The notes under the pieces are model-generated. The model was not told where the DNA came from and searched no databases. It was given only the letters and a program-made list of their open reading frames with translations. A stretch of DNA of 64,000 bases from Syntrophales bacterium. Its GTDB lineage: Bacteria; Desulfobacterota; Syntrophia; Syntrophales; UBA6807. Position 1 is the stretch's first letter, and each line of letters opens with the position of its first letter. Made by a program: the position numbers and the translations under genes. Positions 3,960-60,214 of this stretch are shown in pieces. The stretch is taken from assembly GCA_040767195.1 (NCBI GenBank), contig JAXGPA010000003.1:128001-192000 (forward strand), given 5' to 3'.

Positions 3960-3992
3960 CTTGACTTGGTCCGACCCCGGTTAGAGCCAGCG
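3960..3992. repeat. Truncated copy of HUH-element end plus 14 nt of captured flank (direct repeat of 4301-4343)
   Basis: CTTGACTTGGTCCGACCCCGGTTAGAGCCAGCG is identical to 4301-4343 apart from a 10-nt duplication there. Confidence 0.85.
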
Positions 3993-4224
3993 CAGAAGTT
4001 GCTGCAGACGACAATATCTTCCGGCTTCATGGCCGTGTCATGTGGGTCCCCGTCCCCTTTTTTATGAAATGAACGGAGGGATACTATGAGACCTTACAGT
4101 TATAGAAAGGAATCGAAAAAGGAATTTTGGGCCTCTTCCGCTCGTTCAAGAAGCATAGGGAGGTCAGACCCTGGCTTAAAGGAGGGTTTAAGGGGTTAAA
4201 AAGGAAAACGACTCTTAAAAGAGG

Positions 4225-4319
4225 GTTTTGGGGGTCAAAAAAGGCCTTCTAAGGCCAAAAAAGAGCAGAAAAAAGGCGTTATCGTAAAATAAAACAGATA
4301 CTTGACTTGGTCCGACCCC
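4225..4319. mobile_element. Solo right end of RAYT-like element
   Basis: TCAAAAAAGGCCTTCTAAGGCC...CTTGGTCCGACCCC, matching 60114-60198 with the same 64-nt box spacing. Confidence 0.8.
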
Positions 4320-18092: not shown

Positions 18093-18222
18093 GGGGTCGG
18101 ACCAAGTTATCCTACTGATATCTAATAATAATCGCTCAAAAAAGAGGCGTTTTTAAGCCTTAGAACGGCTATTTCAAGTGTAAAATTGACCCTCTAAAGT
18201 AAACCTGCACGGCATTCACTAC
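18093..18222 (-). mobile_element. Truncated MITE-like derivative (left end) of RAYT-like element
   Basis: GGGGTCGGACCAAGTTATCC...GCCTTAG at +64; closely aligns with 21922-22050. Confidence 0.85.
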
Positions 18223-21921: not shown

Positions 21922-22220
21922 GGGGTCGGACCAAGTTATCCTATTGATATCGAAAAGTAATCGCTCAAAAAACAGGCGTTTTTGAGCCTTAGAACGGCAA
22001 TTTCAATGGTAAAATCGATCCTGTAAAGAAAACCAACCCATCATTCATTGATGACACATCACACATATCCGAAGATGCGAGGTCTATTTACCCATGGCAT
22101 TGTATGACTCGAATCTTAAAAAGCCATTTTTAACGTTAAAAATGCTGGTTTAAGCCAAAAAATCAGAGAAAATTTGTCTACTATTGGAATAATATTAAAT
22201 TGTTATCTTGGTCCGACCCC
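21922..22220 (-). mobile_element. 299-bp MITE-like internally deleted derivative of RAYT-like element
   Basis: Inverted ends GGGGTCGGACCAAG / CTTGGTCCGACCCC, both 64-nt boxes, decayed transposase start and C-terminus. Confidence 0.88.
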
Positions 22221-23948: not shown

Positions 23949-24256
23949 CAGGTCAGACCAGGTTATCCGAGTTATCTTATTGGTATCCAAAAATAATCGC
24001 TCATAATAACTAGAGTTATGAAGCCTTAAAATGCCAATTTCAGACGCAAAATTGAGTTTGTAAAAAAACAACCCTGCATTCACTGATGACAGGTCAAACG
24101 CATCAAAAGAGGTAACCTCCATTTACCCCATGGCATTATATGAATCAAAGCTTAAACCGACATTTTTAACGTTAAAAATGTCGGTTTAAGCCAAATAATC
24201 AGAGAAAATATGTCTATTATTGAAGTTATATTAAACCGTTACCTTGGTCCGACCCC
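23949..24256 (-). mobile_element. ~308-bp MITE-like derivative of RAYT-like element
   Basis: Degenerate left end GGTCAGACCAGG with 9-nt internal duplication, intact right end; collinear with 21922-22220. Confidence 0.85.
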
Positions 24257-57017: not shown

Positions 57018-58810
57018 CAGTCTCGTTCAATTACCTTGAGATTCAGCCGGGCGGCCTCGAGCCCGGGGTCGCAGGACAGGGCACGCCGGAAACTTTCGGC
57101 CGCTTCACCTCTTCTCCCCTCCTTCATGTAGACAACACCGAGGAGGTTGTGCGCTTCGGCATAACCGGCGTTGATCTCGAGGGCCTCCCGAAGCAACTGG
57201 GCGGCCTTTTCATTTTCCCCCCGGCTGACGAAGATCATGGCCATGTTGAACAGCATCCCCTCCTTCACGGGACCGTGCTTCAGCGCCTCGAGCAGATGCG
57301 CCTCCGCCCCCTCGAGATTGCCCTGGCGAAGAAGAACAACGCCCAGGTTGTTGTGGGCGGCGGTGTAGCCGGGATTGAAGCGGATGGCCTCGCGGTAGTG
57401 GAACACAGCCTGGTCCCCGCGCCCCAGGGCCACCAGGTGGTTGGCCAGGTTGAAATGGGCGCTGAAGTGACGGGGATTGACCCGGATGGCCTCCTGGAAG
57501 TGGTTGACAGCCGCTTCCCGTTCACCGTCATCGGCCAGGGCTACGGCGAGGTTGTTGTGGGCGAGAGCGTTGTTCTCTGTCACCTCGAGGGCGTGCGTGA
57601 AGAGGCTTCGGCTGTTCTTCCAGTGAGACAGTTGAAACCATGTCGTCGAGGAAAGTCCCGCCAGGAGTATCAGGACAAGGGAAGCCGAAGCGAAAACGGG
57701 AAATCGCCGACGGGAAAGGGTCTCATCGACAGCCCAGGTCAGGGCGATGAAAAGACCGATGAGAGGGATATAGGTGTACCGGTCGGCCATGCTCTGGGGG
57801 CCCACCTGGACGATACCGATGACAGGGAAAAGGGAAATGAGGTACCAGAGCCACCCGGTGAAGAACCAGGGCCGGCGGGCCTTTTCCCGGAAAACGAACA
57901 CGGTGATGAGAACCAGGAGGGCCGCCGCTCCCAGAACCTTCCAGAAAGGAATGGCCGCCGGGTAGGGGTAAAAGACGGACAAGCCGGCTGGCCAGAACAT
58001 CTTGCCCATGTATGTAACGGCGGAAACCAGGGCATTGGCGGCCCGATCCGCCAGGGGGATGGCCTCGAGGCTTCTCATGGCTCCCCCGGAAGCCTGGGCG
58101 TAGAGCGTTATCCCGGAAGACAGGACGGCAAGAGCGAAAAAGGGGATTTTTTCCATTTTTGAAGGTGGCCTGTCGGGAACAGGCCGGCGCCGCAAGGGCC
58201 ACACATCGAGAAGGAGCAGAAGGAAGGGTGCGCTGACGAGCATGGGCTTGGCCATGAGTCCGAGAGCGAAGAACACCAGGGCGATTCCGTATTTCCAGCG
58301 GCCCGGTCTCTCCACGTAAAGGGCGTAGGCCCCCAGCATGAGGAAAAGAAAAAAGGTGCTGAGGACGTCTTTTCGTTCCGCCACCCAGGCCACCGATTCC
58401 ACGTGCAGGGGATGAAAAGCGAAGAGTGCGGCCACGATGCCGCTTTTGCCCGGGGCGCCGGTCATCCGGGTCAGGATGAGAAAGAGGAGGACCGTGTTCA
58501 GGATGTGAAAAAAGAGGTTTGTCCCGTGGTGGCCCCCGGGATCGAGACCGTAGATCTCGACATCGATCATGTGGGAAAGCCAGGTCAGGGGATGCCAGTT
58601 GCTGGCGTGAAAAGAGGTGAACGCCCAGCCCAGGCCGCGAAGGGTCACCCCGGCGGTGACCTCCCGGTTGTTCAATACATACTGCCAGTCGTCCAGGTTG
58701 ATAAAATCGTGGTTAACGACGGGATGATACAGAAAAAGAGTCATCCCCGCCAAAAAAACAGAGACGGCCCAGAGCGTTTTCTTGAGGTCCGTCCGCGGCA
58801 ACGGGTTCAC
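57017..58810 (-). CDS. TMTC-like membrane glycosyltransferase with TPR repeats
   Basis: DD..Y, NWHPLTWLS, HPLHVESVAWVAERK, ADRYTY, C-terminal TPRs. Confidence 0.8.
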   Translation of the reverse strand: MNPLPRTDLKKTLWAVSVFLAGMTLFLYHPVVNHDFINLDDWQYVLNNREVTAGVTLRGLGWAFTSFHASNWHPLTWLSHMIDVEIYGLDPGGHHGTNLFFHILNTVLLFLILTRMTGAPGKSGIVAALFAFHPLHVESVAWVAERKDVLSTFFLFLMLGAYALYVERPGRWKYGIALVFFALGLMAKPMLVSAPFLLLLLDVWPLRRRPVPDRPPSKMEKIPFFALAVLSSGITLYAQASGGAMRSLEAIPLADRAANALVSAVTYMGKMFWPAGLSVFYPYPAAIPFWKVLGAAALLVLITVFVFREKARRPWFFTGWLWYLISLFPVIGIVQVGPQSMADRYTYIPLIGLFIALTWAVDETLSRRRFPVFASASLVLILLAGLSSTTWFQLSHWKNSRSLFTHALEVTENNALAHNNLAVALADDGEREAAVNHFQEAIRVNPRHFSAHFNLANHLVALGRGDQAVFHYREAIRFNPGYTAAHNNLGVVLLRQGNLEGAEAHLLEALKHGPVKEGMLFNMAMIFVSRGENEKAAQLLREALEINAGYAEAHNLLGVVYMKEGRRGEAAESFRRALSCDPGLEAARLNLKVIERD

Positions 58811-59250
58811 CGGTCCGGCAACGCCATGCCGCCTGTTTCATGCTTGACGGTGATGGGTTCGCCCCTGATACCGGCATAGAAAACAATTATTTCCGCCGTT
58901 TCATTGCCGTCGTTTTTCCCGTAGTGCCAGGTGTTCACAACCTCGACAATGGCCTCACCGGCTTTCAGGTTCAGTGTCCTGCCGCTTTTGGTGACGACCG
59001 TCAGTTCCCCTCGCAACAAAACACCCGCGTTAATAACAGGATGCCTGTGGAGCGGTAAAATCGCACCGGGGGGGATGGTGATCCTCAGGATGGTTATTTC
59101 AGGGTTTCCTTCCGGGTAATCAGGCAGAAGGTTTCCGTCCCAGCTGGAACCGGTTCTCGAAAGGGTTTCGACGTGAACGCCGCTTTCGTCCGCCGCCGCG
59201 ACATGCACCGACAGCAGTATCGCCAGCCCTACAAACAAAATCCTTTTCAC
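58807..59250 (-). CDS. Exported cupin-domain protein
   Basis: H.HP..G, EVVNTWHYG; GTG start directly abuts element terminus. Confidence 0.78.
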   Translation of the reverse strand: MKRILFVGLAILLSVHVAAADESGVHVETLSRTGSSWDGNLLPDYPEGNPEITILRITIPPGAILPLHRHPVINAGVLLRGELTVVTKSGRTLNLKAGEAIVEVVNTWHYGKNDGNETAEIIVFYAGIRGEPITVKHETGGMALPDR

Positions 59251-60198
59251 GGGGTCGGACCAAGATAACATGTTGATTAATCGGGATATACTTCCCAAAA
59301 TAGGCTGTTTTTATGCCTTAAAAGGGCATTTTCGGGCCGGAAAACACTGTTGTAAGATTCATCAGGGTCTTTAAGAATATACAAATTCTCCGTCTTCAAA
59401 GAACGAACATCTCGCCCTGATCCTTGAAGTCCAAGATTTACTTTCACTCGGCTCACATAATCCCGGCTGCCCACGGCAACGCTATTTGACCAGAAGGCCT
59501 GTTTTACGGAACCTGCGGCAATGGCCTTCTGAATCCACTCTTCGTAGACATTATTAAAATTTTCATTCACAGCTACCAGTTCATTGAGTCTTTCCCTGGC
59601 GATGATTCGATATCGTTTTGGAGGGTTCATTAATTCGTGATAACCGCAATGCCTCCACTTTCCAGGATGATTGACGACTCCGGCACGAACCATATTCAGA
59701 TCTATGTAAAGGAGGCATCGAATCAAGTGTTCTTCCGTATCGATGGCTGTGGCATGATAACGATCCTCCCAAAAAGCACCGTTCCGTTTTTTCCGCCGGT
59801 TATATGCCTGGGCCGTTCTACCGGCGACAAGTTGAACAGATTTTGGAATAACCTCTCTGTCTTTCCCCCCGTATACCATGAGGTGAATGTGATTTGAGGT
59901 TATCGCGTAATTCAAGACCTCGAGGCCATACCGTTTTTTCGCCTCGAAAAGCCAACGGACCCAGGTACTGCGGTCAATTGAAAACTTAAGGAGAAAAGAG
60001 CTTTTATGGCAGCGGTGCGTTATGTGCCACACATTGTCCGGTAGGAAGTGTCTGTTCGCTCTGGGCATGTTCAAATATCAAGGAGCGTTTTTTTTAAACA
60101 AGCTTTTTTGACATCAAAAAGGGCCTTTTAAGGCCGATAATCGCAACAAATAAGATTGTTTAGGAAACTATTTCAAATAGTTAACTTGGTCCGACCCC
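59251..60198 (-). mobile_element. 948-bp RAYT-like HUH element with bipartite inverted ends
   Basis: GGGGTCGGACCAAG at 59251 and its inverse ending 60198; GCCTTAAAAGG boxes 64 nt inside each end. Confidence 0.85.
59277..60068 (-). CDS. REP-associated-type tyrosine (Y1/HUH) transposase
   Basis: HITHRC, NHIH (HUH), FWEDRYH, YIDLNMVRAG (catalytic Tyr). Confidence 0.9.
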   Translation of the reverse strand: MPRANRHFLPDNVWHITHRCHKSSFLLKFSIDRSTWVRWLFEAKKRYGLEVLNYAITSNHIHLMVYGGKDREVIPKSVQLVAGRTAQAYNRRKKRNGAFWEDRYHATAIDTEEHLIRCLLYIDLNMVRAGVVNHPGKWRHCGYHELMNPPKRYRIIARERLNELVAVNENFNNVYEEWIQKAIAAGSVKQAFWSNSVAVGSRDYVSRVKVNLGLQGSGRDVRSLKTENLYILKDPDESYNSVFRPENALLRHKNSLFWEVYPD

Positions 60199-60214
60199 GG
60201 ATTCCCGGATTCCA

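Follow-up and report, generated by a model that had tools for sequence, protein, structure and literature searches.

A TIRYT-like transposase gene between long inverted ends of fixed spacing, with a suggested functional boundary about 6 nt outside the ends

The window, a 64,000-nt stretch of DNA (G000:C7:128001-192000), contains a HUH/Y1 transposase gene lying between spaced inverted ends. This observation of the original prediction was confirmed, and the interpretation first attached to it was partly supported. The sequence itself displays the anatomy of the ends, their fixed spacing, a tip of about 6 nt that travels with them, duplications that begin at them, and the lack of target duplication. 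The reading to which we lean, derived from sequence comparisons, is that the enzyme would nick at a set distance from the end, that the 3'-OH of the flank would be extended, and that the tyrosine-linked 5' end would be captured by a 3'-OH, with either inverted end able to act. The long end, a boundary lying 6 nt outside the repeat, and the covariation of a protein residue with a base of the end all appear to be new.

The transposase gene (59277..60068, minus strand) encodes a protein of 263 amino acids that matches Pfam Y1_Tnp (PF01797) with E 1.3e-8, and the element is located immediately past the 3' end of a tRNA-Leu gene, with a GC content of 44.5% versus 58.7% for its contig. The protein carries the motifs NHIH, with H60 and H62, FWE, and Y121 within YIDLNM. 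Residues H60, H62, Y121, and N125 are invariant in an alignment of 70 proteins, composed of the query and 69 of 80 related loci after short, truncated, and duplicate ORFs had been dropped, and M126 is found in at least 90% of these rows, making the motif YIDLNM and not Y---NP. The HuH-to-Tyr distance (H62 to Y121) is 59, which fits the range of 58-67 aa of subclass 2.1. An AlphaFold model (pLDDT 88.5) gave E. coli TnpA-REP (4ER8) as the top structural match, with Z 16.1 and an rmsd of 2.4 over 155 residues. The scores against the NCBIfam models REP_Tyr_transpos (NF047646; 67.4 bits, cut-off 80) and IS200/IS605 (NF033573; 21.7 bits, cut-off 55) fell below the cut-offs, and the Y---Q motif is absent. 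The Pfam scan returned only Y1_Tnp matches and no HTH domain (Bac_DnaA_C, HTH_23, HTH_28), and the C-terminal domain gave no informative match in the Atlas search.

As predicted, the left end overlaps the end of the gene, with the stop codon and the last 26 or so codons sitting within the downstream end at 59251. Since the last ~26 residues (window 59277-59356) are encoded by the end, are modelled with low confidence, and are absent from several relatives, they may be constrained as DNA only. The genome contains one intact transposase gene plus a few remnants. Another RAYT-like gene, at G000:C1:462135-462520 (L155), is decayed and interrupted by in-frame stops; it begins just inside a GGGGACAG-type repeat, which has an IHF-like match of 8/9 and no dyad.

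Each end, read inward over about 106 bp, consists of an outer box (positions 1-14), an IHF-like site, phased A/T tracts, and a 40-bp dyad. The outer box, GGGGTCGGACCAAG, is present as identical inverted 14-mers at 59251..59264 (plus strand, downstream or 3' end) and 60185..60198 (minus strand, upstream or 5' end). The predicted palindrome GGTC-N-GACC does occur in the 14-mers, but it is dispensable, because a GGGCC variant is found at both ends in 4/54 elements. Positions 16-28 (59266..59278, plus strand, and 60171..60183, minus strand) form a site which we take to be IHF-like from its agreement with the reverse complement of the IHF consensus and which is presumably bound by IHF. Matches of at least 8/9 occur at offset 16 in 90/199 ends, while 14 other offsets gave 0-2 and shuffled sequences 0.3; three HU/IHF-family genes are present in the genome, and the site could instead be one for the transposase. 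The A/T tracts recur with a period of 10.7 bp. The dyad occupies positions 67-106 (59317..59356, plus strand; 60093..60132, minus strand), with the consensus NYTANA-N6-WTTTY-N6-RAAAW-N6-TNTARN, and its first arm includes the second box of the original prediction, which is therefore not a separate element. The proposed two-box recognition thus holds insofar as the ends are bipartite, spacing-constrained, and matched by covariation of residue 5 with the outer box, while the number of parts is at least four.

The spacing itself was borne out. The motif G(C/G)CTTA begins at offset 64 in all seven ends originally named, and the exception at 23949 lies at offset 74, with the 9-nt duplication plus 1 nt in place. 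Across the whole genome (2.39 Mb), a single spacing accounts for 21 occurrences of the box followed by SCTTA; one more lies at +1, and 28 other spacings that were tried gave none. The strict outer boxes number 24, of which 21 are accompanied by the second box at its usual position, one is truncated at a contig end, and two are partial or rearranged. The claim of invariance is exact in this genome and holds to ±1 family-wide: in a free dyad search over offsets 35-110, 196/211 strong-dyad ends fell at 66-68, 178 of them at 67, and 11 of the remaining 15 are upstream partial box duplicates. These full ends were picked by a purpose-designed dyad score, and 105/316 boxes are without a strong dyad. 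Ends were located at 136 of 160 possible positions in the 80 related loci, and fixed positions are conserved across these 136 ends, contrary to the idea that the spacer diverges freely.

The outer arms of the dyad covary (T-A in 92 and C-G in 19 of 129 ends), and covariation is seen at its positions 2/39 and 5/36. Its 6-nt spacers can pair in about a quarter to a half of the ends, mostly near chance, and in this genome not above chance, and the single-strand fold is weak (mean -5.6 kcal/mol, mean z -2.1, z < -2 in 47% of 120 folds). The dyad as a true hairpin was mostly rejected on the near-chance spacer pairing, the weak single-strand fold notwithstanding, and no transposase residue tracks the dyad variant beyond clade effects. 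The sister TIRYTs have short repeats with a dyad in 0/31 boxes, so the ~106-bp architecture is clade-specific among those examined. GTAG-footed REP hairpins were not noticed by eye around the window element. The motif GGGGWSAS, which is reported for some but not all TIRYT TIRs in the part of PMC3733652 available to us, is matched at 7/8 positions in the window element and fully in the end at C10:80222. That end belongs to a 177-bp unit (G000:C10:80222-80398) inside a transposase remnant, in which two opposed boxes have a common dyad at offsets 67 and 72. The L148 locus (G242:C3) contains a variant whose box is fully palindromic and whose ORF is longer; it is found in one array with GGGCC-type ends, and in this array repeated pairs of lysozyme and DUF1353 genes lie between ends.

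Non-autonomous copies are present, as predicted, and near-identical copies occupy different sites in relatives. In the window, one copy of 299 bp (21922..22220, unstranded) has a stutter at its left junction, and a related copy (23949..24256, unstranded) has a degenerate left end whose dyad is shifted by +10 nt. Two solo full ends were found. One (18093..18198, plus strand) has the ATG of a methyltransferase gene (18085) starting 8 nt beyond its box; at the other (4214..4319, minus strand), an ABC ATPase gene has its stop codon within the outer copy of a stutter. A partial ninth end of 19 nt (3960..3978, minus strand) has no inner box or dyad and has 14 nt of flank in common with the 4319 end. 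The 33-nt piece at 3960-3992 (14 nt of flank and 19 nt of end) is copied 341 nt inward of the 4319 end, in the reverse of the usual stutter order.

At the upstream junction of the element, the stretch that separates the box from the 3' end of tRNA-Leu (60199..60212, minus strand) contains a repeated unit, a 6-nt tip followed by GG. Such tandem stutters, consisting of flank and the start of the end, occur at 65/169 ends, whereas 50 random-flank controls gave 3.2±1.5 with a maximum of 7; in a larger set they occur at 97/270 ends. The flank part of the repeated unit is 5, 6, or 7 nt long in 21, 43, and 29 of 129 copies, respectively, and the inner edge varies from 0 to 32 nt. Sister TIRYTs stutter at 10/31 boxes despite lacking the dyad. 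A second line of evidence comes from 16 pairs of ends at different sites that are identical at 100 or more of 106 positions; same-site pairs were dropped, and the pairs are not independent. Positions -1 to -6 match in 14, 15, 14, 15, 14, and 11 of these pairs, and positions -7 to -15 in only 3-7. These patterns suggest a functional boundary about 6 nt beyond the outer box, so that the break would lie in neither box, contrary to the cleavage box that had been proposed. Inverted copying of flanks between the two ends left little trace, with only position -3 standing out among 12 tested.

At the downstream end the corresponding tip is 59245..59250 (plus strand), and the putative nick would lie on the outer side of this tip. 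Inside the tip is the GTG at which a cupin gene apparently starts; this GTG is absent in L187, and in the X3 allele it falls in frame with a TPR gene. Several observations disagree with a single fixed nick and suggest that a tip is sometimes exchanged, through nearer nicks or filler. Close pairs in the G242, G299, and G202 regions match in only 16-18/29 at -1 to -5, compared with 4-13 beyond -6. At the orthologous tRNA-Leu-side junction, both tip and stutter differ in L187, a strain locus of 95% identity, and the tip at 4319 takes in a host stop codon. Upstream box copies fall into two groups, with 28 sharing at least 5 flank bases, 38 sharing 0-1 (about 19 expected by chance), and none sharing 2-4.

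Larger events also begin at the ends. Partial tandem duplications, 196, 288, 864, and 892 bp long, have a tip as their starting point, and either end type initiates them; the duplication seen in L023 and L116/L133 is one and the same and was counted once. The joints contain the donor's tip, which is unlike the native continuation, and 0-9 nt of unexplained filler. The idea that the tip is picked by a match to the target was rejected, as five duplication joints fail it; L054 shows a 4/5 match. Whole miniature copies bear both tips (L105, L072), and target duplications of 2-9 nt at five offsets were found in none of 53 paired elements.

The empty orthologous sites that the original prediction would have led one to expect were sought in runs, strain loci, and a same-genus genome and were not found. 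Four runs contained no empty site and no joint skipping the element, and in the same-genus genome xerD and tRNA-Leu are kept with unrelated DNA beyond them. Both L186 and L187 contain the element, its site being unchanged in strains 95-98% identical, and the box was found in 0/78 more distant cupin loci. At this locus the evidence is therefore stronger for junction remodelling than for recent jumps. A contig from run X3 joins 58790 to 59244 (-7 of the window's box) through 4 filler letters, without the cupin gene; this strain polymorphism breaks at the suggested boundary. The contig has a depth of 11.4 and 121 letters on its short side, and another contig carries the window's allele. This joint stems from a related strain at 90% likeness and is mute on which allele is older. 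In L187:1-465, the DNA ahead of the 3' part of tRNA-Leu is unrelated, which would fit the integration of another element in this tRNA.

In some genomes the ends form arrays. In G299, 37/46 pattern hits lie within 71 kb, where miniatures of like orientation are placed between small genes, toxin-antitoxin pairs, and the transposase itself; at L146:15507-16319 of the same genome, a transposase without its own ends lies cassette-like between two miniature copies. In G242, 23/24 full ends lie in 55 kb on one strand and bound duplicated segments, several of which start at -6 to -8. On these patterns, the arrays can be explained by local hopping plus selection. An integron check identified 0/56 ORFs from two array stretches as an integrase, and a loosely defined attC-like pattern was matched 0-6 times per 15-20 kb of array, a count without a control.

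Base 9 of the outer box is identical at both ends in 54/54 elements and covaries with residue 5 of the transposase. Lys5 is found in 21/21 gene rows with G at base 9, versus 5/91 rows with A only, and four of the five Lys5/A rows are a single divergent element type seen repeatedly. On a FastTree tree, the Lys/G combination appears in three places, with one nested Asn/A row. The comparison gives fair support for residue 5 tracking base 9, and is best taken as a lead, because the rows include partial genes and genome repeats and some tree nodes are weak.

These observations can be assembled into a model in which each inverted end of about 106 bp would start events on double-stranded DNA much as a rolling-circle initiation site does. 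The outer box would be read by the transposase, partly via its N-terminal arm (residue 5), and the host protein IHF would bind just inside it. Phased A/T tracts and the dyad would bend or wrap the end, which would account for the fixed spacing. The enzyme would then nick the strand on which GGGG reads inward, in most cases 5-7 nt beyond the box and irrespective of sequence. Cleavage by HUH enzymes yields a 5'-phosphotyrosine together with a free 3'-OH (PMC3333891, Fig 7 legend); here the tyrosine would remain on the element-side 5' end and the flank would gain the 3'-OH. If this 3'-OH were extended into the element and then attacked the phosphotyrosine, a tandem repeat would result with a fixed outer edge and an inner edge varying from a few to ~900 bp. 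Attack by another 3'-OH would join the end to a new site. Use of one end would produce solo ends, adjacent rearrangements, and same-orientation arrays, and use of both ends a new full or miniature copy without target duplication.

A more ambitious version of this scheme, which we put forward only tentatively, describes a HUH/Y1 transposon acting on duplex DNA within an IHF-shaped end complex, in which both strands' 5' ends, with ~6 nt of flank, would be joined onto pre-existing 3'-OH ends. This would be the mirror image of the strand transfer of Mu and Tn3, with donor flanks as primers, and would build arrays of end-bounded cassettes. It seems improbable that the enzyme instead makes a staggered double-strand cut with an overhang of ~6 nt, for which the coupling sequences of Tn916 offer a parallel, and moves by cut-and-paste or circle intermediates, with fill-in and religation giving rise to the stutters and junction remodelling subsequently removing the target duplications. 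Such a cut yields an identical stutter product and would account for tip replacement, but the 53 elements have no target duplication, both tips move together in whole miniature copies, and duplications of 200-900 bp demand long strand displacement or a far second cut; moreover, the left tips of the G299 array are, by eye, unlike swapped right tips.

A single-strand route like that of IS200/IS605 or REP elements, in which the enzyme would bind the dyad as an imperfect subterminal hairpin on lagging-strand DNA and cleave at a measured distance, appears slightly less probable again. The near-chance pairing of the dyad spacers, which in this genome does not exceed chance, weighs against it, and so do the stutters of the dyad-less sister TIRYTs, while the 10.7-bp phasing, the ±1 spacing, and the IHF-like site fit duplex DNA better; nevertheless, the fold is nearest to TnpA-REP, the dyad covaries at the two position pairs given above, and nearly half of its folds reach z < -2. 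We consider it very unlikely that the gene is domesticated and non-mobile, with the stutters due to host replication slippage at G-runs and the ends being passive repeats or regulatory sites. That explanation draws on the single intact copy, on the one locus kept across strains, on the empty plasmid search described below, and on the mostly vertical inheritance of RAYTs stated in the part of PMC5581495 available to us. Slippage, on the other hand, gives neither a fixed outer edge at -6 nor identical ends at new sites with ~6 common flank bases, and the covariation of protein and box and the patchy distribution, with relatives in several phyla, also speak against domestication.

A genome scan yielded at least 594 confirmed relatives in several phyla, of which 80, at 48-59% identity, were kept; some of these loci are probably one genome seen twice. 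At E 1e-60 the family profile matched 18/301 genomes of the phylum, and a plasmid collection gave no match at E 1e-30. TIR-flanked Y..NP relatives scored E 1e-23 to 3e-32 with this profile, and 17 other RAYT-like proteins 1e-5 to 6e-13. One full element with typical ends (L004) is in a record titled as a methanogenic archaeon, which may reflect transfer or bin contamination.

The inverted ends are puzzling, since the Y1 enzymes in the literature examined need single-stranded DNA. Subclass 2.1 is given as the second largest Y1 protein group, present in 14.9% of species, in the available part of PMC6006769. For the clade described here, the substrate (106 bp plus tip) is defined, the strand and position of the cut are predicted, a host factor can be named as a candidate, and a single-residue change is predicted to swap specificity, so the proposed mechanism is directly testable. 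If true, it would represent an additional route of transposition and one way in which genes are shuffled locally in anaerobic bacteria.

The element is a variant of the TIRYT/TIRtron, with a RAYT-like HUH/Tyr protein and terminal inverted repeats. TIRYTs were named by Di Nocera et al. 2013 (PMC3733652), and most were put in TnpA-Y1 subclass 2.1 by Quentin et al. 2018 (PMC6006769), who, in the part available to us, called for further analysis. Because YIDLNM departs from the Y---NP signature, we place the element beside subclass 2.1 and not in it. TIRYTs, subclass 2.1, and RAYT Group 1 share with it a RAYT-like HUH/Y1 gene flanked by inverted repeats that begin with GGGG-W-S, dispersed repeats that form a small family, and a His-to-Tyr distance of 59, and it is of a type common in delta-proteobacteria. 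It differs from TIRYTs and subclass 2.1 in its ~106-bp ends with IHF-like site, phasing, and dyad, in its YIDLNM motif, and in giving no HTH match in Pfam. RAYT Group 1 has the highest RAYT duplication rate, 6.2%, in the passages available from Bertels et al. 2017 (PMC5581495), and the available parts of these three papers describe no cut site, tip, stutter, or mechanism. Nor was a mechanism for TIRYTs or subclass 2.1, or a ~106-bp end, found in the accessible portions of the wider literature, most subscription journals and ISfinder aside; Figure 9 or the supplements of PMC3733652 may show such an end.

Among better-known systems, E. coli TnpA-REP and its REPtron are close in fold, and the nick, extend, and rejoin route proposed for BIME amplification by TnpA-REP (Ton-Hoang 2012, PMC3333891, Fig 7B legend) matches the stutter product. 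The window ends are unlike theirs in that no GTAG-footed REP hairpins were noticed by eye, and the break seems to be set by distance and not by a CT dinucleotide. With IS91/ISCR, the element has in common HUH chemistry, the lack of target duplication, and one-ended events that take neighboring DNA. In IS91 the two ends differ in function and the target is a tetranucleotide, as stated in the available part of PMC13181058, whereas the ends of the present family are alike, inverted, and of one architecture, both appear to initiate, and the sequence of the tip is variable. The Y1 fold and the lack of target duplication are also features of IS200/IS605 TnpA elements; these, however, have same-strand hairpin ends and a Y---Q motif, in contrast to the inverted ends and YIDLNM motif described here.
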